Of a stretch of DNA of 64,000 nucleotides, positions 6,181-64,000 are shown piece after piece. Source of the DNA: Syntrophorhabdaceae bacterium (GTDB lineage: Bacteria; Desulfobacterota; Syntrophorhabdia; Syntrophorhabdales; Syntrophorhabdaceae). Location of the stretch: contig OY762209.1 in the NCBI GenBank assembly GCA_963665295.1, positions 1,024,001 to 1,088,000 on the forward strand, given 5' to 3'. The number at the start of each line of letters is the position of its first letter. The stretch's first letter is position 1. The notes under the pieces are model-generated. The model saw only the letters and a program-made list of their open reading frames with translations. It searched no databases and was not told where the DNA came from. A program made the translations under genes and the position numbers.

Positions 6181-9100
6181 TCAAGGCTTAACCTTGAACA
6201 CCTTCCCCGGGGACGTTCCCACGGATGTGGTTACCGTTACCGCGCCGGTGGTGGCGCCTGCGGGGACCGTGCACTTGATCGCCGTCTCCGACCACGAGGT
6301 ATAGGCGGTCACGGCCACGCCGTTGAAACTTACCGTCGATGCGCCCTGGGCCGATCCGAAGTATTTGCCCTTCAAGGTCACCACTGTTCCCACCGTTCCC
6401 GAAGAGGGGGAGACGGAAGAGAGGACGGGAAGGTTCACGGTAAACGTCTTCCCGGGGGACGTTCCCACGGACGTGGTTACCGTTACCGCGCCGGTGGTGG
6501 CGCCTGCGGGGACCGTGCACTTGATCGCCGTCTCCGACCACGAGGTATAGGCGGTCACGGGCACGCCGTTGAAACTTACCGTCGATGCGCCCTGGGCCGA
6601 TCCGAAGTATTTGCCCTTCAAGGTGACCACTGCTCCCACCGTTCCCGAAGAGGGGGAGATGGAAGAGAGGACGGGAAGGTTCACGGTAAACGTCTTCCCG
6701 GGGGATGTTCCCACGGACGTCGTTACCGTTACCGCGCCGGTGGTGGCGCCTGCGGGGACCGTGCACTTGATCGCCGTCTCCGACCACGAGGTATAGGCGG
6801 TCACGGGCACACTGTTGAAACTTACCGTCGATGCGCCCTGGGCCGATCCGAAGTATTTGCCCTTCAAGGTCACCACTGTTCCCACCGTTCCCGAAGAGGG
6901 GGAGACGGAAGAGAGGACGGGGGACTTGGGCACTGCAACGACATCGAACTGCACCTTGACCGATTTGGCCGTCGACAGACTGGTGAGGCACGTGTTGCCC
7001 GAAACCTCGTCGCAGCCTGTCCACCCGGCAACGGCTGAACCTGAATCGGGGATGGCCACGAGGGTTACCGTATTGTCCGAGGTGAAACTGCCGCTACAGA
7101 AAGTGCCGCAATTGATGCCGAGGGGCGTGCTTGCCGCCAAACCCGAGCCTTTGCCTGTCTTTCCTACGGTGAGGGTATTCCACGATACGGGACTGAATTT
7201 TACTACCGCACTATCAGTTGTTCCGTAAATGCTGTTGTAACCGTCCACCGCGAGCCCGTAGATCTTTTGGGACGCATTGCCGGAACGGTATGACCTCCAT
7301 TCAGTAATAAAAGTGCCGTCGGACTTGAATCTGAGAATCCTTCCCTCAATGGTGCTTACAAGAAGGTTGTCGGCCGTATCCACTGAAATCCCCGTGAGGT
7401 AACTATAAAACTGACCCTGTGCCGGAGAGACGGTCCATTTTCCGAGAAAATTGCCGTTCCTATCGAATTTCTGAACGTTGCCCCTCGCGCTGTCAAGGAT
7501 ATACACGCCATTTTTGGAGTCTATGGCGATACCGGTGGGCCAGTAAAATTCGCCGTCGCCTTCACCATACTGGCCCCATGCGAGATAGCTCGAATCGCCG
7601 CCGAATTTTTGTATGCGCGTATTACCGGAGTCGACAACGAAAACGTCCTCCAGGGTGTTCACCGCCACGCCCATGGGATTGGAAAACTGTCCTTCTTCCC
7701 AGCCGTAGCTCCCAAATTCCTCCAGAAACCCGCCCGCAGCGTCAAACACCTGTACACGGCTGTTTCCATAATCGATTGCGTACACATTCCCGGAAGGCCT
7801 CGTCGATATTGCCCAGGGATTGATGAATTCTCCAGGTCCGCTTCCATATTGACCCCACATTCTCACGTAAGCCCCATTATTGTAAAGCACCTGGATCCTG
7901 TGATTGCCCGAATCGGCGACAAAAATCTCGTTGCCTTTTGCCGCAATGCCGAGGGGAGTATAGAACTGCCCGTTTCCCTGTCCGGAGGAACCGGTCTGCC
8001 AGGTTTTCTTGTACCGTGTCACCGGGAATCTCGAATAGTCGGTCTGGACGCCTGTCTTGTTATCTTTTGCACGCCACCGGTACACGCCCTCGCCCTTTGC
8101 CGACGCCGGGGTGAAGACATAATTGAACTGGCCCAGGGTGTCGGCGTTCATCGTAACGCCGGGAGCGCCTGTCCCGTCCGGGTAGAGCATGGAAACGGTA
8201 ACGCTGCCTTTCTGTGAAAACCCTACGCCCGACAGAATGACCGATTGACCCAGATAGCAGCCTGACTGACTCTGGGAAATCTCTGGAGTGGAAGCGTTGA
8301 TAAGCTGACTGAGGCCATAGGGCGCCACGCCCTTCGCCGTATCATCCGTAACATAGAGGCGGCCGTCGCTCGTAAGGGCCATCTGTCTGAAATTGAGGGC
8401 AGCGCCGGAGTTGAAGAACTTCGAAAGATCGAAAGTCCGCTGTTCCTTCGGCTTGTCGGGAAAGGTGTTTTGCCACTCCCGTACGCCGTCGAGGGACGCC
8501 CTTACGTCGGCAAGGACCTGCAACATGCGCTCCTGCTCGGCGCTGGTGGATTGAACAGGCTCGTTCGTGATCTGCTCGAGAGGCACATCGAGGACAAAGA
8601 GGTGGTTGGTCGCCGTGCCTCTTGCCCGGACGCGGTCGATGGCCGACACGTAGGTGTCTATGCTTGAAGCGAAGGCGCTTTTCGAGGAACCGAGGCGGGC
8701 AGGCTCCTTGGGAGTGAGAAGCTTGGGGTAATAGAGTATTATGTTCCTCAACGCCACCAGTTCATCCGCCTCCATCTGAAGACCGTACGCAGCCTGGGGA
8801 ATGTAGATATCGAGGTTGTAGGCAAGAAGCAGTTCGAGGCTTGCCTTCGCCCCGTACAGGGCCGCTCTTATGAGGAGCGCGTCTGCATAATCTATGTTGT
8901 AGGCGGGTCCCGTGGTCTTTAGAGCGTCAGGGTTCATGACGGAAACAAAGTCGATGCTGGTGACCTTGTTGAGGTTTTCTATGGCCCCGTTAATCTCCTT
9001 GAGCGCCTTGTTGTTCAGGAAGTCCAGAATATCGCCCGACTTCGGGGTGGTAGTCGCCAACTGCTCGGGGCTCTTCGAAATGACCGTATTGTACACGCCA

Positions 9101-47860: not shown

Positions 47861-48949
47861 TTAAACCCTGATCGGCATCACGATATTCTTATAATACTCG
47901 GGGCTGTTCTCCTCTTCAAAAAGGACGGCTCCATACGTGGGGGGTATCTTTACCACGATACGTTCCCCTTCGATATGGGATACGATATCGAGCATAAATT
48001 TCACGTTGAAATTCATACTCATTACCTCACCCTCGTAGCCGATCTCTATGGTTTCTTTTGCGTGTCCTATATCGGACTCGGATTCTATTTCCATTGTGCC
48101 CGGTGCAAGGTTGATCTTCACGGGCTCCGACCTTCCCATAATAGCGGAAACGCGGCGGAGTCCCCTCAGGAAATGCTCTTTTTCGATGGTGGCCACATTG
48201 TCGCTCTGCTGGGGGATCACGTTGTCATAATCGGGAAAGTTGCCCTCTATGATCCTCGACACCACCGTCGCCTTCTCCGTACTGAATTGTATGTGTTTTT
48301 CATCTATACTCAGCTTTACCTTATCCTCGTCACCTATGATCCGCTCTATCTCGGATACGGACCGTTTGGGAATGGTTATCCCCTTGAAGCCCTTGATGTT
48401 CTCTATCTCCTTCTGGTAGAGGGCCATTCTGAAACCGTCCGTCCCTACCACCACGACCTTCCCCTCGGTCCCCTTCATGTGCATGCCTGTCAGCACATAA
48501 CGCGTCTCGTCATTGGAGATGGCGAAGCTTACCTTGTCCGTGATCTCCTGGAGGAGCCTGCCGCTCACGAAAAATTCCTCATACCCCTCGATCTCCTTTA
48601 CCTCGGGAAACTCTTCGGGGTCCTGCAGGCTGAGCACGATTTCCGTCTGCTTCTGCCTGATGGTGAGAGTATTGTCTTTCACTTCAAGACCGATCTCCCC
48701 GTTATCCATCTCCTTCAATATCTCCAGGAACTTCCTTCCGTGGACGACTATCCTTCTCTCTTCCTCTGTCTTGTAATCAATATGGCTTATGGCGCTTAAC
48801 TCGAGGTCTGTGGAATAGATGGTTGTCCCTTCCCTTCCAAACGCTATGAGGACGTTCGAGAGTATGGGCATGAGCGATCTCTTTTCTGTAATGCCTACCA
48901 ATTTTGATATAGGCCCTGAAATAAGATTTTTATCTATGTTTATATTCAT
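47861..48949 (-). CDS. dnaN: DNA polymerase III beta sliding clamp
   Basis: PILSNVL, STDLE, ETRYVLTG, TDGFRMA, GNFPDY, IVMPIRV. Confidence 0.97.
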   Translation of the reverse strand: MNINIDKNLISGPISKLVGITEKRSLMPILSNVLIAFGREGTTIYSTDLELSAISHIDYKTEEERRIVVHGRKFLEILKEMDNGEIGLEVKDNTLTIRQKQTEIVLSLQDPEEFPEVKEIEGYEEFFVSGRLLQEITDKVSFAISNDETRYVLTGMHMKGTEGKVVVVGTDGFRMALYQKEIENIKGFKGITIPKRSVSEIERIIGDEDKVKLSIDEKHIQFSTEKATVVSRIIEGNFPDYDNVIPQQSDNVATIEKEHFLRGLRRVSAIMGRSEPVKINLAPGTMEIESESDIGHAKETIEIGYEGEVMSMNFNVKFMLDIVSHIEGERIVVKIPPTYGAVLFEEENSPEYYKNIVMPIRV

Positions 48950-48957
48950 AAATACCT

Positions 48958-48994
48958 CTCGTCATCATAATAAGTGATGTTAACTTGTTGAAAA
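48958..48994 (-). promoter_or_regulatory. oriC unwinding element: tandem degenerate DnaA boxes plus DnaA-trios upstream of dnaN
   Basis: Minus strand TTTTCAACA AGTTAACA TCACT TAT TAT GAT GAC GAG; same layout as the box-box-spacer-NAN-trio module of B. subtilis oriC. Confidence 0.6.
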
Positions 48995-49068
48995 GCCTCC
49001 ATATGCCTTTATATCTGAGGGGATCCACGAAGAACAATGGTCCGGCGGAATGTGGAAGAGATGTGTGC

Positions 49069-50385
49069 TCATGTCAGCTTGATCCTTGATTCCAGGTTAT
49101 CAACAGTGTTTTTCAACTCTTTCTTAATTTTTTGCTCTGCCTCTATTTTTCTTATGGAATGGAGGACAGTTGCGTGATCCTTCCCGCCAAACTTTTCACC
49201 AATGCTTACCAGGGAAGCGTCCGTCAGCTTTCTCGAAAGGTACATGGCGATCTGACGGGGAACCATGAGGGATCTGATCCGCCTCTCGGACTTCAGATCG
49301 GATATCTTAATGGAAAAGTAAGACGCCACCTGTTCTATGACAAGGTCGATGGTGATTTCCTTCTTCTTCTCCTTTATGAGGTGGCCCATTATTTCCTTGG
49401 CGAGGTCGATGGTAATGGGGGTCCCCTTCAGGGAGGAGAAGGCGACGATTCGCGTGAGAGAGCCTTCGAGGGATCTCACGTTGTCGTCCACATTGGAGGC
49501 GATAAAAAAGGCCACATCAAGGGGCAGGTCCACGTCTTCATACTCTGCCTTTTTGTTGAGTATGGCCACCTTTGTCTCGAGGTCAAGGGATTGGATATCC
49601 GCGATGAGGCCCCATTCGAACCGGGAACGGAGTCTCTCCTCGAAATTCTCGATGTCCCTCGGGAACTTGTCGCTCGTTACCACGATCTGCTTCATATTGT
49701 CATAGAGGGCATTGAAGGTGTGGAAAAACTCCGCCTGAGTCCTTTCCTTCCCTGCAATGAACTGTATATCGTCAATTAAAAGTATATCCATTCTCCTGAA
49801 GCGGTTTCTGAAATCCTCCATCTTTTCATAGCGAAGGGAATTAATCAGCTCGTTGGTGAAAACCTCCGCGGTAATATAGCAAATGCGCTCCGGACCCGTG
49901 TTGCTGTGGGTGAGGAGGAAATTGCCGATTGCGTTCAGGAGGTGCGTCTTACCCAGACCCACGCCGCCGTATATGAAGAGCGGGTTGTAAGTCTTGCCCG
50001 GATTGGTCGCCACGGCCAGACACGCCGCATTGGCAAACTGATTGCTCGCCCCCACGACAAAATTCTCGAAGGTATACCGGGGATTGAAGATGTTATATTT
50101 CGGGGGCTTCTTTATGACCACGCCCCGGGTGCCTTCCTGCTTCTCGTCCTTCTTCAGCACATATTCTATCTTTGTGTCCGTTTTGGTAAGGTCCTTGATG
50201 AGGCTTACCATGATGGGCTCGAAGTTTTCCACGATCCAATCCCGGAAGAAGGTGTTCGGGACCGCGATATAACATTTATCGTCCCTGTAATCCGAAAATT
50301 GTATGGGCTCAATCCACGTTTTATAGCTATCTTCGCTGATTATGCTCGCAATCTTAGGTTTTATCTGGGAGATAATATCATCCAT
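49069..50385 (-). CDS. dnaA: Chromosomal replication initiator DnaA
   Basis: YTFENFVVGASN, YNPLFIYGGVGLGKTHL, LLIDDIQF, RLRSRFEWGL, GGKDHATVLH. Confidence 0.99.
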   Translation of the reverse strand: MDDIISQIKPKIASIISEDSYKTWIEPIQFSDYRDDKCYIAVPNTFFRDWIVENFEPIMVSLIKDLTKTDTKIEYVLKKDEKQEGTRGVVIKKPPKYNIFNPRYTFENFVVGASNQFANAACLAVATNPGKTYNPLFIYGGVGLGKTHLLNAIGNFLLTHSNTGPERICYITAEVFTNELINSLRYEKMEDFRNRFRRMDILLIDDIQFIAGKERTQAEFFHTFNALYDNMKQIVVTSDKFPRDIENFEERLRSRFEWGLIADIQSLDLETKVAILNKKAEYEDVDLPLDVAFFIASNVDDNVRSLEGSLTRIVAFSSLKGTPITIDLAKEIMGHLIKEKKKEITIDLVIEQVASYFSIKISDLKSERRIRSLMVPRQIAMYLSRKLTDASLVSIGEKFGGKDHATVLHSIRKIEAEQKIKKELKNTVDNLESRIKLT

Positions 50386-53873: not shown

Positions 53874-54107
53874 ATGGCGGACGAACTCCTTGAAGAGGAA
53901 AAGAAACTCCGGAGACTCAGGTTCATGGTCGATTTTGCCCTCGAATACATCAGGACCCAGCATATTTCCCACGACGAAGCCATCTCCGTGGTGGAGGGGG
54001 TAAGAAACCACGCACTGAAACTCTTCCCCGGAAAAGAAGAAACCTTCGACCTCATCTACATGTCCCGCTTCAAACGGCTCCTCAACGAAAAATTCCAGAG
54101 GGCGTAG
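53874..54107 (+). CDS. Small hypothetical protein (77 aa)
   Basis: Helical protein 'EEEKKLRRLRFMVD..LFPGKEETFDLIY..RFKRLL'; codon style like host genes; follows lspA. Confidence 0.75.
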   Translation: MADELLEEEKKLRRLRFMVDFALEYIRTQHISHDEAISVVEGVRNHALKLFPGKEETFDLIYMSRFKRLLNEKFQRA

Positions 54108-54261
54108 ATGTGCGTCCACGGCGGCCGGTAAACAGTTGAATTCCTGTAATATGGATTACCCACATGGATGACACGGTGATTTTAGGGAGAGCGTGCGTAA
54201 CGGGTGTCATGACTATCTCCGGTGGCAGCCGGTGTAAGGCCAATCGCAGGTTGGTTCCCGC

Positions 54262-57200
54262 CTAACCCATCGATTCCTGCTCATGTTTTTCTAGTCTCGC
54301 GAAAAGCTTATCAATATAGTTATCCCGGTCATCAGTCATAAAGAGCACATGCTGGTCTTCAAGCTCTTCCTGTGTTTTGCCCCATTTCAATTGCGGGTAT
54401 GGCGACCATGAAAGAATGAAGCTGTTGAGAATTACGTTCGGATCGTTCAACCGCTTCTCGATCTCCTTGATGCGCCTATGAAGCAGGACCTTCTCGCTGC
54501 CTGGCCCCTCTCCATGAAGAAGGCCATGAGGGTCAAGAAACGTTACGTATTGCTTGTCTCCGGTCAATACCCAAAAAATAAAGTCTGGGTAGAAACTCCC
54601 AGCCTCGAAAAAACCTACGCCTTTGCCACGGCTCATGTTTCTGAGAAGGAAAAGCTCTGTTTCGTTGTTTTCAAGGGCAGTTCTGTTTGTATTGCACCAG
54701 CCCCTCAGGTCCGTGACGAACTGATATTCACTCTCATTGAGCATTACCGGCAGAACTGTGATTTTGCCACCTTTAGGGACATGAAAGAGCGGTTGAAAAA
54801 GGTGTTTCCCGAAATTACAGGCATTGAGACCACCGGCCTGAAGAAGATCGTCCTTTCGCAACTCCAGGTCCCTCTTTATCTGATTGATTCCCTGAATGAC
54901 CTGGGCCTCGTCGCCATCGACGATAAGCTGATACAGTTCCTCAGTCGGCAGGTTGTCATCGTCCGGCGTCAGCTCGCGGAGTTCGAGGCGCGGTTCGATG
55001 TATTCACGCTTGCGATAGTTGTAATAATGCTCACAGTATCGCTTCAGGAGTTCGCCGGCGATCTGCTGGAGGAGCATGACGCCTTTGAGGTCCGCAGGAT
55101 TAAGCCAGGCTTCAGGCAGGTATAGGACATACCACGAAGAGTCTCCCAGTAAAGCACGGATCCCGCCTTTGGTAATGTTGAGGTTATACCAGCTTTTTTC
55201 ACGCTTGAACTGTTCCAACTCAAAGAACAGGGCGTCATAATCAAGTAATGCAAGGTGGCGTCCGCGAAAATATGCGTTGCTTTTCCCGGCTGCAGAACTC
55301 GTCCCTTTCGACTGCACGGCCTGAATTCGGGGATACCAATCAGCCGTAACCCTATTGGCAGTCAAGTAGCCGGGGACAACTCCCACGGTGGGGACAGGGC
55401 CGTCCTTCTTGAAGTCGTACTCCTTGCCGTCCGATGCCTTCCGTTTAGGCCGGAGTATTTTCAATCTTTTGCCAAAATCATAGGTCACATTCAGCGGAAC
55501 TGTAATGACGGTCCTGCGCTCGTTTCCGGGCAAGCCTTCCTCTCTTAAGAATTCCCGGAATCTTTCCATAAAATCAGCCTCGATCCCGAAAACGTTGAGC
55601 GTCTCGATCTCAGGGATGAAGACAGGTTGCACGGGCGCATGGGATCTGCCGCTCCGCTTCAGGCTCCACTCGTATCCTTTAAGGCGGACGCCCCGGCCGA
55701 ATAGTTGGATAATCTGTGTCCCTTCGCTTTTCCCCACATGCATGAGCCCCAGGGTGCTTACACGCCAGCAGTCCCAACCTTCCACAAACTTCTTGGACCC
55801 GATGAGAAGATTGACAGCAGACGAGGAATCTTTTACCGAGGCAAACGTGGCTTCCGTAAAATCGCTGTCTTCTACTTTCAACGGAATATGGTTTTGAGCT
55901 GCCACCTCTGCAACGTGGTCGCAGAGTCCTTTTGCGTCCCCAACATTTATCAGCCCGAAGGGAAGCTCCGCTCCACCTACGCGTAGCGCTACCTCTCCCG
56001 AATCCCCCTTGATCCTCTCAAGTTCAAGGGTTCCGCCTGCGTCGTTATTGAAGAGGCGCCGGAGGATGTCACGATAGATCTGCTCCATCGTTTCTCCGGC
56101 ATTCATCGATTCTGCGAGATAGGTAAAAGAACCGGCGAAAATGTCGTTGCCGTCCTTGTCGATGAGGCCGGTGTCCTGACCCTTTCCGGTGAGGACCTTA
56201 TCCATTCTTTTGCACGCTGCCTGCCGGTCATGAAGGAAATCAGCGATGAACTGGATTATCAGGGCCACATCTGTGGCCACAATCCTATCATCTTCCGAAC
56301 CACCCTTGGCCTTTGAGACAGTGCTCCCCACGAAAACCCAGAGGGGTTTTTCGATGTTGAAGGGTGCGAACTCCTTTGATTTGTCATCGTAAATCCGCAA
56401 TTGCTGATAGAACTTAAGGAGACAAGCCGTCAGATACATGGCCCGCATGTCGTCAAACGACTTCGGGAGGTTCAGTATCTGATAGTCCTTTCCAAAACCA
56501 TCCTCATAGAACCACCGGTAGGAATAATCAAAAATAATGGTTTTGGCATAGCTATTCTCGAAGTCCTTGTTGTTGGCCGCCGATACCGCCTGCTCGAAAG
56601 TGGCCGAATACTCGAAGGTGAATCCTTTTGCACAGAGGTCGGAACGACGGGTGAACCATGCGCCCTCCTCTTTTCCGCTCATGCCCCGGTGTCCTTCATC
56701 GACGAGAAGCAGGTTTTGATCGCCCAGGCTTCTGGTGGCAATCGTGTTGGGGCCTTCCTGATCGCCCAATTTTGTTATCTCGATAACATCGACCTGGTCG
56801 AATGCACCCTGTTTGGATAGATCAAGCTTTTTCACCGACCAGAATCCACTTTCCTGGAATTCGATAATGTGCTGCTCGCTGAGACGCTCATTAGGAGTAA
56901 GCAGGATAGCTCGGGAAAGAACCTTTTCCTCGCCATGTCTTTTGGCATAATGGCGGTATTGAAGCAGATTGACATGCATAAGCAGCGTCTTCCCGCTGCC
57001 CGTTGCGTTCTGAAGGCAGAGTTTGTTCAGGTCGTCTTCAGAATACGGCGGGATGTCGGCGTATTCAGGCCAGTGGTGATTGAACCGATTCACAAAGACA
57101 TTGAGGTCTTTTAGAAGCGCCTGGCGATTCCCCAGGAAACGGTCCAGATATATTTCCGTGAAGAGGAGCGTCAGCCATTGAAAATACTTCCACACAACAG

Positions 57201-57522
57201 GCCTGCGTCGCTTCTCGTTAATGGCCTGGGTATGGCGCACAATATTTTCTTCATAGAGCAGAATCTGTTCCTTGCTGATGGCCGCCAGATCATTCCAGAA
57301 GAGGGTGCTGTTTACCAGGGCGTGGTAGAAATGGTGGAGATTGTCGTGATCGAGACCTTCACGGCATTTCTTGAGCGGTTCTGCCAGATCGTGGAAGGGC
57401 CTGGTAGTCCCTGTGTATCTGTCGGCAAGAGGGTCAATACCGAAGAGGCCCATGAGCCACTGATTGAGGACAAGCTTGTTGCGGAAGGCGTGCTGTTTGG
57501 GACCCTTTGATTTCTTAGCCAT
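54262..57522 (-). CDS. res: Type III restriction-modification Res subunit (SF2 helicase + PD-(D/E)xK-like nuclease)
   Basis: NATGSGKT, DEGH, EYSATF, FVEGWD, QLFGRGVRL, C-terminal FYPDF...FLDPHG. Confidence 0.88.
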   Translation of the reverse strand: MAKKSKGPKQHAFRNKLVLNQWLMGLFGIDPLADRYTGTTRPFHDLAEPLKKCREGLDHDNLHHFYHALVNSTLFWNDLAAISKEQILLYEENIVRHTQAINEKRRRPVVWKYFQWLTLLFTEIYLDRFLGNRQALLKDLNVFVNRFNHHWPEYADIPPYSEDDLNKLCLQNATGSGKTLLMHVNLLQYRHYAKRHGEEKVLSRAILLTPNERLSEQHIIEFQESGFWSVKKLDLSKQGAFDQVDVIEITKLGDQEGPNTIATRSLGDQNLLLVDEGHRGMSGKEEGAWFTRRSDLCAKGFTFEYSATFEQAVSAANNKDFENSYAKTIIFDYSYRWFYEDGFGKDYQILNLPKSFDDMRAMYLTACLLKFYQQLRIYDDKSKEFAPFNIEKPLWVFVGSTVSKAKGGSEDDRIVATDVALIIQFIADFLHDRQAACKRMDKVLTGKGQDTGLIDKDGNDIFAGSFTYLAESMNAGETMEQIYRDILRRLFNNDAGGTLELERIKGDSGEVALRVGGAELPFGLINVGDAKGLCDHVAEVAAQNHIPLKVEDSDFTEATFASVKDSSSAVNLLIGSKKFVEGWDCWRVSTLGLMHVGKSEGTQIIQLFGRGVRLKGYEWSLKRSGRSHAPVQPVFIPEIETLNVFGIEADFMERFREFLREEGLPGNERRTVITVPLNVTYDFGKRLKILRPKRKASDGKEYDFKKDGPVPTVGVVPGYLTANRVTADWYPRIQAVQSKGTSSAAGKSNAYFRGRHLALLDYDALFFELEQFKREKSWYNLNITKGGIRALLGDSSWYVLYLPEAWLNPADLKGVMLLQQIAGELLKRYCEHYYNYRKREYIEPRLELRELTPDDDNLPTEELYQLIVDGDEAQVIQGINQIKRDLELRKDDLLQAGGLNACNFGKHLFQPLFHVPKGGKITVLPVMLNESEYQFVTDLRGWCNTNRTALENNETELFLLRNMSRGKGVGFFEAGSFYPDFIFWVLTGDKQYVTFLDPHGLLHGEGPGSEKVLLHRRIKEIEKRLNDPNVILNSFILSWSPYPQLKWGKTQEELEDQHVLFMTDDRDNYIDKLFARLEKHEQESMG

Positions 57523-57584
57523 ATATCCCTTCCCGATATTCCAGGCAGTCAGGCTTGTTGCTCATGAGATAGTTACAAAGGTAT

Positions 57585-57618
57585 TTGTGTCTCACAGAGC
57601 CACTATTATGAGACACAA
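57585..57618. repeat. 10-bp inverted repeat between rhuM and res
   Basis: TTGTGTCTCA-14 nt-TGAGACACAA. Confidence 0.7.
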
Positions 57619-57644
57619 GGCGTTCCATAGCCACTCTCTTCTGT

Positions 57645-58697
57645 CTAATCACTATCTCGCCCCGACGTTTCTATTGCTTTTTCCATGCGTCTCAGTTCCT
57701 CATCATCAGAAAGGGCTTCAGTTTCAGCCTCAGTGGCGAGGCGATGGTGGTTGAATACCTCGTATTGCTTGAGCGCCAGCGTGTCGGCAACCTCCTTGGA
57801 AACCTTTCCTGCGTTTTCAAGGATCTCTCGTTCGTTGAAACGCAAGAAGGCATTCAGTTTTTCGCGCCAATCCCTCATAAAAATCTGTCTATGCCGTTTC
57901 GCCTGGTCTTCAGCATAGTCCAGATACATACTTACAATGCGGTTGAGTCCGGCAAGCTCCTCTTCGTTCAGGTAGTTTTTTGCAATCGTCACATCGCCCT
58001 TACGAACCTTCGTTCCTTTCCATGATGTAAGGCCCATGTTGGGCTTTTTTGCATCGGCCCGCCCGGCAATCAATTCCGCTGCCGTCTTACCGGAAATGGC
58101 GAAGTGCAGTTTGTTCTGGACGATCCGGAAGAACGTCAATGTCTCCTCTGCTTTAGGATTGTAGTCAACGGCCAGTTTGTAGATATCACGAATTTTCTGG
58201 TAGAATCGCTTTTCGCTGGATCGGATATCCCGAATCCGCTCCAGCATCTCGTCGAAGTAATCAGAACCGATGTTCGTGCCCGCCTTGAGACGGTCATCGT
58301 CCATGGTGAAGCCCTTTACGAGGTACTCGTTTAGACGTTCCGTAGCCCAGATGCGGAACTGAGTGCCACGATATGACTTTACCCGGTACCCTACCGCAAT
58401 AATGGCCTCCAGATTGTAGTGCCGGACGGAGCGTTGGATTTGTCTGCCGCCTTCCTGACGAACTATTAAGTAATCCTTAATAGTTGCCTTTTCCGAAACC
58501 TCACCCTCATCGTAAATATTCTTCAGGTGAATGTTGATATTGGGAACGGTTGTTTGAAACAAGTCCGCCATTGCCGCCTGGGTCAGCCAAACGGTTTGGC
58601 CCTCTATCCGTATTTCGATACGAGTTTTTCCATCTTCTGTCTGATAGAGCAAGAATTGACTGTTTTCCGGGAGGCCGGGTGTATTATTCTTTGCCAT
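57645..58697 (-). CDS. rhuM: RhuM family protein
   Basis: TVWLTQAAMADLF, HYNLEAIIAVGYRVKSYRGTQFR.WA, GFTMDDDRLK, IRDIRSSEKRFY, AKNYL. Confidence 0.92.
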   Translation of the reverse strand: MAKNNTPGLPENSQFLLYQTEDGKTRIEIRIEGQTVWLTQAAMADLFQTTVPNINIHLKNIYDEGEVSEKATIKDYLIVRQEGGRQIQRSVRHYNLEAIIAVGYRVKSYRGTQFRIWATERLNEYLVKGFTMDDDRLKAGTNIGSDYFDEMLERIRDIRSSEKRFYQKIRDIYKLAVDYNPKAEETLTFFRIVQNKLHFAISGKTAAELIAGRADAKKPNMGLTSWKGTKVRKGDVTIAKNYLNEEELAGLNRIVSMYLDYAEDQAKRHRQIFMRDWREKLNAFLRFNEREILENAGKVSKEVADTLALKQYEVFNHHRLATEAETEALSDDEELRRMEKAIETSGRDSD

Positions 58698-58698
58698 A

Positions 58699-61600
58699 TT
58701 ATACCCCCTCCGTATCCCACATTCTTTTCATAAACTCTTCTTCGATGAGACGGACCTTCCATGTGTCGCCTTCTTTCAGAAGATTGGGCAGGTTGTTGCT
58801 CCCATTGACGTAAATTGTATCGAACTCAAAATCACGAGTACTGATACGATTCTTCTCGAACCACTCGTCGAGCATGAGGTTATCCGTCTCCGGATCACCG
58901 GTCAGTCTTCGCCAGACGATGAGCACCTTTTCCTTTTGGCCGTTGTTTGGGTTTTGCCGGTCTTTCGGGACCCAGCCTTCAACCTTGCGGAACCACCAGC
59001 GACAATGATCAGGTGACAATGAACAATGAGCAGGTGACAATGAACAATGAGCAGGTGACAATGAACAATGAGCAGGTGACAATGAACAATGAGCAGGTGA
59101 CAATGAACAATGAGCAGGTGACAATGAACAATGATCAGGTGACAATGAACAATGATCAGGTGACAATGAACAATGATCAGGGTCATCTTTTGGTTCAATT
59201 TGTTCATTGTTCATTGATAATTGTTCATTGACCTTCCGCATCTTGCCGTCAATGACAAGCTTCGTATGCTGATCGGTGGGAAGCTCCGGATCGGAAAGTC
59301 GCATGAAGCCTGCCGTAAAGACCTGGGGTTCGGCAATGTGGATCACTCTGAGGCCAATAAGGTAATTGAAGGTTTCGAGGAGGTCCACGTTGCGGTTCAC
59401 GTATTCGTCGCTTCCCGGCTTCTTCACTTTCAAAGTATAGGCGGTGGGATCGGAAAAAGCATCGATATTGAGAAGCGATTGACTCCCCTTTGTCTCCACA
59501 TCAAGGAGATAGTGGAGCATGAAATCCTCTTCGAGGGAAGCATTGGCCGCCACCGCCTTATCGCGGGTCGGGTTAACGTCAAAACGGAGGTTGTTCAGAG
59601 TGTCTTCGTAGGATTCGAGGCGGAGGTACTTGAAGCAGTGGGAGATACCCGTGTGACGGGCTGTGGGCTTGCCGTCTTTCCAGTCAGCGGAATAGACCAC
59701 CTTCACTATTCGAGGTTTGAGCACGGTGTCGAAATAGTCACCCATTTCAACGAGGATATACTTCCGGTTACCGCTATCTCCTCGATTGAGGTTAATGACG
59801 GCGTGAGCGGTAGTGCCAGACCCGGCAAAGTAGTCGAGAACGATACCATCATATTCTTCTTTCAGTCCACACACCGCGAGGCAATCCTCAACGGCATATA
59901 ACGATTTTGGGTACGAGAACACATTGTAGGTGTCAAAATATTGTTTCAGTAAGCCAGTTCCATGTTCTGTAGCCGAGTACTTCGCGTCTACCCAGGTCGT
60001 GAGTGGGAGAACCCCATCTTTGCCTGGTCTGAATCGGTAGTACACGGTAATGGAGTCTCCTTGGACTTTTGCCCGGTAATCTTTCGAAGAGTTCGTTATG
60101 TTCTCAGGTTTTCCGCGCCACCTTCGCTCAGCACCTTGTTCGTCAATTGGGTAGACCACGATTTCGTCGGCCTTCGGTTGCTCCGTAATATCCCACGTCC
60201 TGCAGTCGTCATTCCAATTCATTTTCGGTATACGAACGCTTTCTCCGCAAATATATAGGGGATAATAAAGTGAAGGCCGGTCTTTGCGTTCCGAATTGGA
60301 GCCTCGCTTTCTGAACAACTCCCACATATAAGCCCGGCCTTTTTCGTCGTTGTGTCTATAACGAGCGGCTTGTTTTTCCGATCTTGGAAGCTTAGAGATG
60401 GTTGCGGCGGGAGTATTCTTCATGAAGATGGCATATTCATGGGACTGTGCAAATCCCGAAGGAACAGGGCGTCCCGATGGGTTCATCCTTATTGTTACCG
60501 TGCCTGCGTGGCAATTCTGGTCGAACTCCTGTTCCAAAAGGAAATGAAGTTCCTTCTGTTGGTAATCATCGATTGTTGCACAGAGTATCCCACTGACCGG
60601 CAAAAGAAGTTTTGATATGTGAACTCGGTCAGCAAGCAGTGATATCCAGGAAGAACTTCGGTATCCATTCTTGTAGCTAATCGGTCCAGCATCTGTGTTG
60701 TATGGGGGGTCGATATATATGGACCTTATCCTTTCTTTATATCGCTCCCTTAACTGGTTCAGGGCCTGGAAATTCTCCGAATGAATCAGCAAGCCATCGC
60801 ACTGTTCGTCCAATCCTTCAATTGATGAAACAAGCCGCTCCTTAAACTTATCATCAAAAAATTGAGTATCGAGCACCAGTTTATTGTGGGCTTTCAGAAA
60901 AGCCAACGTGAGAGGTCTGGAGTAGCCCGGCGTATCGGGGGCAGCTAAATCACCGCGCACCATCTCGATCCCGTCAATCGCAAAGAGTTTCACCCACTCC
61001 TCGCGTTGAGCCTCATTGGCGGCTATCTCCGGATAGAGGTCTTCGGGTATCCGATCAAGGGTGATGCAGTAATTAGTCTCCACAACGAACTTCTTCTTTA
61101 GCCAGAGCTTCTTCTGGAAGTTTTCGAGCTGCGCGAGAAAGTCGATCAGTTTTCCGGCTATTCTCCGGAGGACCTTGATTTTTGCCAGATAGCTTTCTAC
61201 TGCCGGGGCTTCGGCGTTCTCAATGTCATCGAGGCGCATCACCTCGTTTTTGATATAGAAGTCCAGCTCCCGGCGGAGGAAAGCGCCCAGGTCTTTGTGG
61301 ATGAAGTAATCCATGGTGTTCCGTGCCGTATACTGGTTCACATATTTTGCCAGGAGGGGCCGTTTCTTGTCGTTCTCCGTGGGGGCAGGGATGCTGAAAA
61401 GGCGTAAATAGGCCGCCAGACTCGCCATGTCGCCGGCCATTGCCTTCAGCGACGAAAGAATGGCCGCCACGGCCTCGACATTTCTCTTGTCTTTCCATGT
61501 ACCTTCCTGCCCTGATTTTTCCGGGTCGGGACGGTACTCAAAGTTGACCACCATCTCACCCGCATCATTCAATTCAACAGGCTTCTCCTTGTGAATAATG

Positions 61601-62325
61601 AAGTAACGCTTGGTTGCGTCACTGGCCTTAACATTGCCGTGTTCCCCTTCTGTTGCCTCGACGATACGGAAGTTCACCCTGAATCCATCAGGAATGTTCT
61701 CCTCGGCGGCACCAAAGAGACCGCCCATTCCAGGGTCCTTTTCTTTCGTGTTCTTTTGTATCTGGGCTTGTGCAGCTGACGAAAGATCGAAGGTGAAATT
61801 GGAAAAATACTCCGTGGTCTTAATATAGTACTGGTCAGCGTTGGCCCAGTGGAGCTTGACTTCTTCCCCGCTGTAAGGCACAGCAAAAGGCGCGGAACGT
61901 CCTTCTGTCTCACGGGCATAGTACCGACGGGAAATAAAATCGCCGTCGTCATAATAGCGCTCAAAGAAGCGGTAAAGGTGGTCGTAAATGTCCGCCTCGG
62001 CAGCGACGGAACCCGCGACTGCCTCGTATCGCCCCCGAACTTCTTTCACTGCGTCGGTCTGCTCGGGATCGGGGGCTCCAAACTTTCTTGCCGTCTCTAT
62101 GGCGTCATCTATTTTTGCCTGCAGTGTTGTTTTCTGTATCTGGTCAACTTCTCCGAAGGCATCCTCCACGATTTTAAGAAGGTCCTTTTCAATAAACTCC
62201 GAAACCTGTCGGGCCTTGGCATGCATAATCCGGTAGAAACCGAAATCGAGGTCAGGCTGGTCAAGCTGAAAAAGCTCCTTCAGTTTCTTAAGGAGACGGG
62301 TCCGAAGTTGTTCTGTGGTGGGCAT
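58699..62325 (-). CDS. mod: Type III RM Mod subunit (N6-adenine DNA methyltransferase) with in-frame repeat insertion
   Basis: DLDFGFYRIM N-terminus, NTMDYFIHKDL, IYIDPPYN, YPKS, DYFAGSGTT; GGAG RBS before ATG 62325. Confidence 0.92.
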   Translation of the reverse strand: MPTTEQLRTRLLKKLKELFQLDQPDLDFGFYRIMHAKARQVSEFIEKDLLKIVEDAFGEVDQIQKTTLQAKIDDAIETARKFGAPDPEQTDAVKEVRGRYEAVAGSVAAEADIYDHLYRFFERYYDDGDFISRRYYARETEGRSAPFAVPYSGEEVKLHWANADQYYIKTTEYFSNFTFDLSSAAQAQIQKNTKEKDPGMGGLFGAAEENIPDGFRVNFRIVEATEGEHGNVKASDATKRYFIIHKEKPVELNDAGEMVVNFEYRPDPEKSGQEGTWKDKRNVEAVAAILSSLKAMAGDMASLAAYLRLFSIPAPTENDKKRPLLAKYVNQYTARNTMDYFIHKDLGAFLRRELDFYIKNEVMRLDDIENAEAPAVESYLAKIKVLRRIAGKLIDFLAQLENFQKKLWLKKKFVVETNYCITLDRIPEDLYPEIAANEAQREEWVKLFAIDGIEMVRGDLAAPDTPGYSRPLTLAFLKAHNKLVLDTQFFDDKFKERLVSSIEGLDEQCDGLLIHSENFQALNQLRERYKERIRSIYIDPPYNTDAGPISYKNGYRSSSWISLLADRVHISKLLLPVSGILCATIDDYQQKELHFLLEQEFDQNCHAGTVTIRMNPSGRPVPSGFAQSHEYAIFMKNTPAATISKLPRSEKQAARYRHNDEKGRAYMWELFRKRGSNSERKDRPSLYYPLYICGESVRIPKMNWNDDCRTWDITEQPKADEIVVYPIDEQGAERRWRGKPENITNSSKDYRAKVQGDSITVYYRFRPGKDGVLPLTTWVDAKYSATEHGTGLLKQYFDTYNVFSYPKSLYAVEDCLAVCGLKEEYDGIVLDYFAGSGTTAHAVINLNRGDSGNRKYILVEMGDYFDTVLKPRIVKVVYSADWKDGKPTARHTGISHCFKYLRLESYEDTLNNLRFDVNPTRDKAVAANASLEEDFMLHYLLDVETKGSQSLLNIDAFSDPTAYTLKVKKPGSDEYVNRNVDLLETFNYLIGLRVIHIAEPQVFTAGFMRLSDPELPTDQHTKLVIDGKMRKVNEQLSMNNEQIEPKDDPDHCSLSPDHCSLSPDHCSLSPAHCSLSPAHCSLSPAHCSLSPAHCSLSPAHCSLSPDHCRWWFRKVEGWVPKDRQNPNNGQKEKVLIVWRRLTGDPETDNLMLDEWFEKNRISTRDFEFDTIYVNGSNNLPNLLKEGDTWKVRLIEEEFMKRMWDTEGV
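59001..59181. repeat. 21-bp tandem array (8 full units + 1 partial) inside mod, built from 7-nt subunits
   Basis: GACAATGAACAATGA(G/T)CAGGT at 59015, 59036, 59057, 59078, 59099, 59120, 59141, 59162; encodes (P[DA]HCSLS)n. Confidence 0.97.
59200..59232. repeat. Inverted heptamer arm complementary to the 21-bp array
   Basis: TTGTTCATTGTTCATTGATAATTGTTCATTGAC. Confidence 0.9.
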
Positions 62326-62329
62326 TTTT

Positions 62330-62645
62330 TCAATCTCCAATCATCAATGATCAATGAACACTTCTCTTGCGCGAGCACTCTCATGCGCCCGTTTCGGTTT
62401 GTCCATTGTCAATTGTTTACTGTCCATTGTCCCTTGTCAATCTCCAATCATCAATGATCAATGAACACTTCTCTTGCGCGAGCACTCTCATGCGCCCGTT
62501 TCGGTTTGTCCATTGTCAATTGTTTACTGTCCATTGTCCCTTGTCAATCTCCAATCATCAATGATCAATGAACACTTCTCTTGCGCGAGCACTCTCATGC
62601 GCCCGTTTCGGTTTGTCCATTGTCAATTGTTTACTGTTCATTGTC
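62330..62645. repeat. Three tandem 107-bp hairpin-forming units between the four-helix-bundle gene and mod
   Basis: Copies start at 62330, 62437 and 62544 and are essentially identical; each has CAATGA-type and CATTGT-type arms around a GC-rich core. Confidence 0.97.
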
Positions 62646-63049
62646 TTGCTTATTCTCGTCTTCTTCAAAATAGCAAAAAGGATGGCAGCCACCTCATCCA
62701 CACAGGGAAAAATACTCTCAAAAGACTTGGCGTCCAGGTATCCGGTATCTTTGAGCAAATTCAGCCAATATTTCGTCTCTTGCGCCTCCTTGTATGCGAT
62801 AGAAACCTTGGCCGAAAGATCGGCTTCGGAAATAGCTCCTTTCGCCTCGGCCAGATTTGCCCCAATCGAGGTTCCGCTTTTGAGCAATTGTCTCGACAGC
62901 ACAAACTCACGTTTCTGTTCTGTTAACTGCTTGTAAATATGGACAATGCGAATAGCCAGTGCGTAGGATTTCTCATACGCAGGATTAGGTTTGCTCATTG
63001 TCATCTGTCCATTGCTCATTGTCATCTGCCCATTGTCCATTGTCCTCAT
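62558..63049 (-). CDS. Four helix bundle protein (TIGR02436 / 23S rRNA IVP / bAvd-like); alternative start at 62998
   Basis: KSYALAIRIV..LSRQLLKSGTSIGANLAEA..S.ADL.AK..IAYKEAQETKYWL.LL; ATG overlaps the upstream gene's TGA. Confidence 0.9.
   Translation of the reverse strand: MRTMDNGQMTMSNGQMTMSKPNPAYEKSYALAIRIVHIYKQLTEQKREFVLSRQLLKSGTSIGANLAEAKGAISEADLSAKVSIAYKEAQETKYWLNLLKDTGYLDAKSFESIFPCVDEVAAILFAILKKTRISKTMNSKQLTMDKPKRAHESARAREVFIDH
62992..63045. repeat. Heptamer/21-bp repeat at the 5' end of the four-helix-bundle gene
   Basis: Minus strand CAATGGA CAATGGG CAGATGA CAATGAG CAATGGA CAGATGA CAATGAG; encodes MDNGQMT MSNGQMT. Confidence 0.9.
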
Positions 63050-64000
63050 ACCACTCTCCACCGGATCGTAAAGACCGGTGTGATCGTTGTTCTTTGCTGC
63101 ATGCGTTTCACAAGCTTCTCAACAAGCTGGTCTCTTTTCGCGGTAATCTCATCTTCCATGTCAAATATCTTTTCTCGCAATGTTCGTTTTCTGCGTTCAA
63201 GCTTGACAATCTCCTCCTGAATTCCATGTTGCTCCTCCATGGTCGATGCCTGACGGCTTCTTCGCTGGAGATCACGGACTTGGCGTTTGACATCATCGAG
63301 TTCTTTCTGTGCGGCCATTTCCATGTCTTCAGCCCATTTATCAAGTTGCTGACAAGCTTCGTTAAAGTGCCGGTTGTTTTCTTCGAGATTACGGGCAATG
63401 GTTGCCTCTGCATATTGTTGGCTGTCGGCGTTTAGACGATTATCGATAGCCACAGGAAGGGTGTCTGCTGGAACGGCTTGACCGCTACAACTAAAGAGTT
63501 TTTCGCAGGTCTCTTGGTCGACGTTATTGCCCACATCATCAACGGCCGTAAAAAGCAGGAATTCTTCGCTGTCGAAGGAGTCTATCCGTAAATGACGGAG
63601 GATAAGCCAGCCCGAGTTTCCTTTGAGCCCTTCCACCATGGAAATTTTTGTCGGATGGTTACTTATGTCGAATTTGATCTCCTTCAAGGGGCATTCATAT
63701 TCGGTGCCCCTCGCGATAACGTGCTCGCCAAGGGGATGGCCCAGACGGTACAGGTAGTCACCGGGTATATTTTCCCGGTTCTTGGATATGAGATGATAAC
63801 GTCCCGGCGAAGCCCCGGCAACAGGTGAAGAATTAAGTATAAATGAAAGGTCGGCATCATCGAACAAAGCGTACTCTGACAGTGTGTGTTTTGTGAGACT
63901 CCAGAAAAGACGGCCAATGCGGTCAAGCTTCTCCTGTGTGCCCGATATGTTTACCTTCAGCCGGGTATGCACATCTTCATCGAAGTTCTCCATGAGAAGC
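63046..64000 (-). CDS. C-terminal part of a probable SNF2-related helicase (5' end outside window)
   Basis: Frame open to the window edge; 'LMENFDEDVH..YRLGHPLG..LDKWAED..coiled coil..VFTIRWRVV' resembles C-termini of SNF2-like proteins found upstream of type III mod; helicase motifs not visible here. Confidence 0.65.
   Translation of the reverse strand, partial: LLMENFDEDVHTRLKVNISGTQEKLDRIGRLFWSLTKHTLSEYALFDDADLSFILNSSPVAGASPGRYHLISKNRENIPGDYLYRLGHPLGEHVIARGTEYECPLKEIKFDISNHPTKISMVEGLKGNSGWLILRHLRIDSFDSEEFLLFTAVDDVGNNVDQETCEKLFSCSGQAVPADTLPVAIDNRLNADSQQYAEATIARNLEENNRHFNEACQQLDKWAEDMEMAAQKELDDVKRQVRDLQRRSRQASTMEEQHGIQEEIVKLERRKRTLREKIFDMEDEITAKRDQLVEKLVKRMQQRTTITPVFTIRWRVV

Follow-up and report, generated by a model that had tools for sequence, protein, structure and literature searches.

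A small four-helix-bundle gene between inverted heptamer arms at the helicase-mod junction of a type III-like restriction-modification operon

A 64,000-nt stretch of the genome of a Syntrophorhabdaceae bacterium (assembly GCA_963665295.1, contig OY762209.1, positions 1,024,001 to 1,088,000; hereafter the window) carries on its minus strand a restriction-modification (RM) operon, in the order helicase-like gene, small gene, mod, RhuM-family gene and res (Table 1). The small gene belongs to the four-helix-bundle (4HB) family TIGR02436/PF05635, and lies between arrays of a CAATG-type heptamer and of its complement CATTG. This locus is one copy of a widespread cassette, consisting of inverted repeat arms and a small gene, and is not an RM-specific system. 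We consider it an even chance that it is an exchangeable junction cassette which resides in mRNA and shares the design of the intervening sequences (IVSs) of rRNA, keeping its operon working, being replaced together with short flanks, and leaving gene-less hairpins behind.

Inverted arms across the TIGR02436 family

The initial annotation of the window had proposed that the gene and its structured repeats form a module, and had suggested examining TIGR02436 flanks for 7-nt periodicity and inversion. Both properties were found. A set of 96 distinct genes with full 150-nt flanks was assembled from 112 profile matches, with 16 dropped as cut off or identical, and was compared with 288 control positions from the same loci, some of which probably lie on further arms. 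Both flanks were periodic in 68/96 genes, which are not independent of each other, compared to 6/288 controls. An inverted match, of the upstream flank to the downstream flank read as its reverse complement, was found in 85/96 genes and 7/288 controls, and direct (non-inverted) flank matches occurred in 35/96. The period was 7 in 135 of the 162 periodic flanks, with some of 8 and 9, and the repeat unit varied from locus to locus. Arms held between 2 and 19 units (median 5, mode 4).

The neighbours of the 4HB homologues are diverse, with 70 neighbouring frames at 39 chosen loci including chemotaxis, two-component, sugar, acetyl-CoA synthase and ligase genes, and one restriction gene; the module is therefore not RM-specific. 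Two further proposals of the initial annotation, an RM-specific system and a dedicated regulator of mod, were not borne out, as homologues sit between many unrelated genes, 45/70 orthologous junctions are empty, and a gene of the GxxExxY family can occupy the same slot (see below). One homologue, 52-54% identical and with CAATTGA-type arms, stands directly before a restriction-enzyme gene of an apparent type I system (L116:302-766).

The link between gene and repeats is one-way. Eight loci were found from the repeats in 60 relatives, and comprised two gene-less hairpins, five apparent single arms and one apparent chance occurrence; none (0/8) had a 4HB gene within about 1.5 kb. Independence of the repeats from 4HB genes, one part of the grounds that had been named for abandoning the module, is seen in relatives. 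Two related genomes also share an orthologous inverted heptamer hairpin that holds no gene and lies between two genes (L235 and L236, at about position 1500).

One junction in several states

The helicase-mod junction was compared in 70 operons, window included, and was found empty, with arms alone, and alternatively filled. In 45/70 operons it is 32 nt or shorter, so the empty-site orthologues that had been anticipated do exist. The 4HB lineage is present in 5/70 (the window, L060, L069, L114 and L115), although L114 and L115 were retrieved with the 4HB gene as query, and without that bias the count is 2/61. CAATG/CATTG arms alone are found in L042, and in L039 a GxxExxY gene (TIGR04256) lies between inverted 9-mer arrays; no GxxExxY gene was found in the genome of the window. 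Other spacers, 36-131 nt long, are found at nine junctions. Unrelated inserts of 487-1923 nt were observed at nine more (L053, L065, L071, L085, L089, L092, L093, L094 and L111), some of which we take to resemble toxin-antitoxin pairs, and a 9-mer arm remnant was observed in L072.

In the other 4HB carriers the cassette measures 424-443 nt, running from a 5' arm that starts at the helicase stop, through the gene, to a 3' arm that ends in the mod ribosome-binding site. The cassette of the window is 723 nt long, as it has an extra hairpin in triplicate, with the gene reading through into the first copy. Its 5' arm likewise begins at the helicase stop, is CAATG-type on the mRNA, and supplies the first codons of the 4HB frame, the ATG of which overlaps the helicase stop; the C-terminus is lengthened by read-through into unit 1. 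The three 107-bp units are 96-100% identical, and in each a spacer separates a CAATG arm from a CATTG arm. The likely mod ribosome-binding site GGAGA is located 8 nt before the mod start, and also terminates the arm in L060, L069, L114, L115 and L042.

The heptamers had been reported at three sites in this operon and nowhere else in the window. All three positions were confirmed (62991-63045, 62327-62647 and 59002-59232), and the absence elsewhere extends to the whole genome, a single contig of 5,508,164 bases (5.5 Mb), in which chains of at least 3 CAATG/CATTG at 7/14/21 spacing occur in this operon only. With a looser heptamer pattern 12/13 matches in the genome fell in the operon, and the reversed control gave 0. 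No further copy of the 107-bp unit or of the mod insert was found in the genome. Reading frames had been described as kept open, which is true of the 4HB gene and of mod; hairpin units 2 and 3 lie between genes. Elsewhere in the genome, a lone ACTTCTG heptamer array of 5.4 copies lies between convergent genes without a 4HB gene (G000:C1:660114-660150), and is possibly a leftover arm.

Copy numbers of the 107-bp and 21-bp units are those of the assembly. Four sequencing runs (kind unrecorded, possibly including the source sample) were compared over 62646-64000, which is outside the long arrays, and showed neither joints nor any loose end at the helicase stop in that interval. Two contigs start inside unit 1, 38 nt past the left edge of the interval, as is expected for a real repeat.

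The position of the 3' arm raises the question of translational control. The protein could bind the arm that holds the mod ribosome-binding site, and so time production of the methyltransferase on entry into a new host. This is consistent with GGAGA lying in the 3' arm so close to the mod start, with the five closest 4HB homologues (76-82%) all following the same helicase, and with the homologue before another restriction-enzyme gene in L116. However, most orthologous operons lack the cassette, the slot can hold GxxExxY, members of the family also have chemotaxis, sugar, acetyl-CoA synthase and other genes as neighbours, and the GAG of GGAGA is predicted to be unpaired in the ensemble, making such a role improbable.

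Probable replacement at the junction

The initial annotation had considered a small mobile cassette, and the cassette does change places. Its carriers are non-monophyletic: monophyly of four carrier mod genes was rejected (p-AU 2.2e-5) in a tree of 35 rows, picked after viewing a 68-row tree, from which 18 rows were omitted as short or without a junction and for which L115 was too short. In this tree L039, which carries GxxExxY, is the sister of L114, which carries 4HB. The two differ by 19 mismatches in the 60 nt adjoining the cassettes compared to 8 in the next 480 nt (98% identical), and the mismatches are mostly silent. On the mod side, this drop in identity near the junction is the strongest among 100 close pairs, the median being zero. 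The pair suggests that a block was replaced, and that this block took in about 30 nt of the gene on either side.

The 4HB proteins of the carriers are 71-84% identical, compared to 16-45% at fourfold-type sites (6/38 to 19/42), so the protein is conserved despite diverged silent sites. By these sequence comparisons, 4HB is an old gene, maintained by purifying selection, that stays at a single junction. No target duplication was seen by eye in aligned filled and empty junctions and loops, most pairs of which are strongly diverged, and no longer co-transferred flanks were seen among the 4HB carriers. The only gene inside the arms is 4HB, with no transposase there; no search was made for a partner elsewhere in the genome. 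Dispersed copies of the cassette were not found in the genome.

On the reading that we favour, the cassette reaches from the stop codon upstream of it to the ribosome-binding site that follows downstream, and consists of the 5' heptamer arm, the 4HB gene and the inverted 3' arm. It would likely change hosts as a block, replaced through homologous recombination or through gene conversion, the crossovers falling immediately beyond the arms; the block would carry the 30 nt or so of neighbouring genes, and neither a transposase nor target duplication would be involved. In the transcript the arms may plausibly pair, closing the gene off, and the operon could keep working because the 4HB start overlaps the upstream stop and the 3' arm supplies the next ribosome-binding site. 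More speculatively, a pentameric Avd-like protein might bind its own arm RNA and so hold gene and arms together, with the pentamer perhaps reading about five units. The 107-bp units and the mod array would be gene-less hairpin derivatives, later amplified by slippage, and inside mod only a frame-preserving 21-nt slip would survive.

The four-helix-bundle protein

The assignment of the small gene to TIGR02436 in the initial annotation stands, and extends to PF05635, with profile scores well above the curated cut-offs (95.3 bits against 24, and 90.9 against 33.8). Folding from the single sequence gave low confidence (pLDDT 61); the model used here is alignment-based, with a pLDDT of 92.5, and has four long helices and a TM-score of 0.84-0.88 to 2RLD; the sequence also matches 2RLD (E 2.7e-27). 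Matches of the predicted fold extend to 2GSC and to 4DWL (TM 0.73), the Avd protein of diversity-generating retroelements (DGRs), in support of the Avd/S23p fold proposed earlier. The entries of the closest homologues with known structures, 2RLD and 2GSC, each contain five chains, which, together with the reference titles, suggests that the 4HB protein is pentameric.

TIGR02436 proteins occur in 45/61 related genomes, with up to 16 matches each. A second TIGR02436-like gene of the present genome, encoding 192 aa, is without periodic arms (L002:1198-1776; G000:C1 about 1,170,000), and its surroundings look to us like a cas operon. The accessible text of one paper reports PF05635 genes in cas loci (PMC3936711), and that of another a resemblance of PF05635 to Avd (PMC10053308).

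As described in the accessible part of one study, all five protomers of DGR Avd contact one RNA stem-loop, and Avd is required by the DGR reverse transcriptase (RT) (bioRxiv 10.1101/2023.10.23.563531). By analogy, an Avd-like pentamer could bind the cassette stem-loop and recruit an RT in trans, the cDNA then replacing its target by short homology. The predicted 4HB model shares the Avd fold (4DWL, 8UBE; TM 0.70-0.73), the co-replaced flanks are short and without duplication, and the genome has two RT-type genes. One of these belongs to a group II intron with an RT/maturase (L233:1092-2936; G000:C1 about 686,000), and the other is an RT-like gene of 551 aa at about 2,650,000, family not assigned. 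Against such RNA homing, identity to Avd is 14-15%, no RT is found in or near the operon (the two are 0.4 and 1.6 Mb away), and no template/variable repeat pair, which in DGRs differs at adenines, is present among the 20 largest repeat families of 55001-64000. We therefore regard it as quite unlikely.

Predicted pairing of the arms in the transcript

It had been proposed that the 5' tract pairs with downstream arms and loops out the gene. This was seen in the ensemble predicted for the window, where about 20 pairs join the 5' arm to the last CATTG arm and enclose the gene, but not in the minimum-energy structure, which pairs the arms differently (z -2.73, 20 shuffles). Predicted arm-arm pairs number 24.5 in L060, 19.2 in L114, 18.1 in L039 and 12.6 in L069. 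Unit 1 on its own has a fold with z -3.43, none of 200 shuffles (0/200) being as good, in which helices of 4 bp alternate with 3x3 loops. The predicted fold of the mod hairpin does not stand out from shuffles (z -1.25, 17/200 as good), and no Rfam match was obtained in 54000-64000.

Pairing of this kind could also serve the host through mRNA processing, with RNase III cutting the arm stem and uncoupling the helicase message from that of mod and res, and the protein modulating the cut. An IVS of Coxiella burnetii with the same design is excised by RNase III in vitro (PMC4990558, in part). An RNase III gene is present in this genome, the predicted pairs enclose the gene, and the 4HB protein is under purifying selection. 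However, 45/70 junctions do without the cassette, 3x3 loops often interrupt the predicted stems, leaving helices of 4 bp, and a cut would be useless at the in-frame mod hairpin. Processing of this kind is thus rather unlikely to be what the cassette is for.

Hairpins inside mod

The array in mod is in frame and 98% homogeneous, and places two anchors 93 residues apart, compared to 20 in most orthologues. Insertions of 18-84 nt occur in the same loop in 8/66 orthologues; by eye most of them look like repeats of a 7-, 8- or 9-nt unit, and one is similar to what we take to be a palindrome of the repetitive extragenic palindromic (REP) type. Judging from the alignments, the mod loop is a tolerant site that collects hairpins.

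It had been suggested that the neighbouring gene seeded the mod array. This is possible, and a local origin of the array is likewise possible, but such seeding is not required: in L064, from a Syntrophotalea genome, three CAATG/CATTG tracts lie in frame at separate points of mod (L064:7138-7444) while the junction is empty, and in L060 the cassette is present and the loop insertion absent. No CAATG-armed 4HB gene was seen in the genomes of L064 or L042, both of which are incomplete. An 8-mer tract was observed at a second in-frame mod site (L043:7350-7382), and in genome G452 a GxxExxY gene has an 8-mer downstream arm (L226) similar to the loop insert of L043.

Type III mod genes are known for phase-variation repeat tracts, whose unit is not a multiple of three and which switch the frame. 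The array, as a long, homogeneous tandem repeat inside a type III-like mod, might be such a tract, unrelated to the 4HB gene. This seems highly improbable, since the homogeneous unit, of 21 nt, preserves the frame, the array is near the 3' end, its inverted partner arm is of the same family as the cassette arms, and unrelated insertions occupy the same loop in the orthologues mentioned above. The homogeneous 21-nt expansion fits slippage filtered for frame.

Weighing the cassette reading

Several observations weigh against the cassette as we have described it. The replacement is deduced mainly from one pair, L039 and L114, between whose flanks identity varies from under 60% to 100%, the operon being mosaic throughout. 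This genome shows no spread of the cassette, the second TIGR02436-like gene there has no arms, and the loci found from their repeats lacked the gene. Few arm-arm pairs are predicted in L115 (3.2) and L042 (4.9), and the whole-cassette fold of L114 is no better than shuffles (z -1.01). The E-value of the Avd match is weak (0.04), and the match of five units to a pentamer is loose because arm length is broad.

Since the operon is mosaic and nine junctions hold unrelated inserts, ordinary RM recombination could move the cassette passively. The 4HB gene would then be an old passenger, and the repeats products of slippage unlinked to any activity of the protein, as the occurrence of repeats without the gene and of a single armed copy in the genome might suggest. 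This would leave unexplained the inverted periodic arms at 85/96 homologues in unrelated operons, as well as GxxExxY, a second family with the same design in the same slot, and we judge a mere passenger to be unlikely.

Relation to known elements

The closest parallel is with the IVS of C. burnetii, located in helix 45 of its 23S rRNA, which in the accessible part of its description has heptamers GACAGAT before the S23p gene, a 28-bp stem, and cleavage by RNase III in vitro (PMC4990558). As there, the element of about 430 nt holds a PF05635 gene inside terminal inverted arms, and tandem heptamers of variable copy number precede the start codon (PMC4990558, same part). The Coxiella unit GACAGAT is also present in the 5' arm of the window. 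Leptospira has 23S IVSs bearing an open reading frame, according to citations in the same source. The terminal inverted arms around a reading frame are shared with 23S rRNA IVSs (in the ensemble, not in the minimum-energy structure). Another defining property of such IVSs is excision by RNase III, the ends not being religated. Unlike them, the cassette lies between protein genes in mRNA, its slot can be swapped for another gene family, and gene-less arms are found in frame in a protein gene. Unlike DGRs, no RT neighbours it.

Heptamer arrays, often as convergent pairs, have been described between aligned genes in Xanthomonas and Nostoc (PMC4692102, in part). Those arrays are G-rich and numerous per genome, whereas the arrays here are limited to one operon; the term "helix bundle" is absent from the main text of that paper (PMC4692102). 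In the literature covered, which excludes most subscription journals, no account was found of repeat-armed 4HB or GxxExxY cassettes in operons.

MITEs (miniature inverted-repeat transposable elements), REP sequences and the REPINs formed from them, and Rickettsia palindromic elements are gene-less hairpins found between genes and in frame inside genes. Unlike these, the cassette has tandem arrays as arms, and its complete form carries a non-enzymatic-looking gene; there is no transposase inside the arms, no target duplication was seen, and there is no genome-wide spread. By these defining features the cassette lies outside rRNA IVSs, DGRs, and insertion sequences and MITEs, though its build is IVS-like.

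Genomic setting

The operon has a GC content of 48-52%, compared to about 55-65% in most bins outside it, and mod was matched in only 7/400 other genomes of the phylum. Because of this deviating composition and rarity, the operon was probably acquired by transfer, repeats included. The 315 aa of the helicase-like gene that lie inside the window had no Pfam or NCBIfam match; from its N-terminal motif we presume the gene to be of SNF2 type. Genes which we take from their translations to be dnaN and dnaA lie at 47861-50385 of the window, about 4 kb from the end of res, placing the RM operon near a probable replication origin. At 6202-6921, elsewhere in the window, a 246-bp unit occurs 2.9 times (97% identity); a protein domain is probably repeated there.

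Table 1. Positions, in window coordinates, of the operon genes, the cassette and the related hairpins
Feature	Position	Strand	Basis or remark
Helicase-like gene, 3' part	63046..64000	-	whole gene 963 aa in genome
5' arm, about 7 degenerate CAATG-type heptamers, 7-nt period	62991..63045	-	repeat analysis
Four-helix-bundle gene, TIGR02436/PF05635, 163 aa	62558..63049	-	profile matches
107-bp hairpin unit 1: CAATG arm, GC-rich inner hairpin, CATTG arm	62541..62647	-	
107-bp hairpin unit 2, intergenic	62434..62540	-	
107-bp hairpin unit 3, intergenic; CATTG arm = 3' arm of cassette	62327..62433	-	
GGAGA, likely mod ribosome-binding site, inside 3' arm	62334..62338	-	sequence
mod, type III-like DNA methyltransferase, 1208 aa	58699..62325	-	PF01555
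CAATG arm of gene-less in-frame hairpin, 4.4 units	59200..59232	-	
18-nt loop of in-frame hairpin	59182..59199	-	
CATTG arm, expanded: 8.6 copies of 21-nt unit (three heptamers), P[D/A]HCSLS	59002..59181	-	
RhuM-family gene (context)	57645..58697	-	PF13310
res, type III restriction subunit (context)	54262..57522	-	PF04851

Significance

TIGR02436 proteins are common and their structures have been solved, but their function is not known. The arms described here provide a reproducible candidate for a nucleic-acid partner, which makes binding by these proteins directly testable. The design ties together the rRNA IVSs that bear an open reading frame, DGR Avd, and the heptamer repeats that bacterial genomes contain in unexplained excess. 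Beyond single cases, the present locus adds one slot which is seen empty, arm-only, 4HB-filled and GxxExxY-filled, and a near-isogenic swapped pair, L039 and L114, which marks the edges of the exchanged block. A wider view, which we regard as doubtful, is that there is a class of transposase-free, site-faithful replacement cassettes, in which small genes of unrelated families, such as Avd-like 4HB and GxxExxY, each with inverted tandem-repeat arms of its own, would compete for the same operon junctions and actively promote their own homing by short homology, with a pentamer reading the repeat RNA; the rRNA IVS would then be a special case of this class, and DGR Avd a recruited relative.

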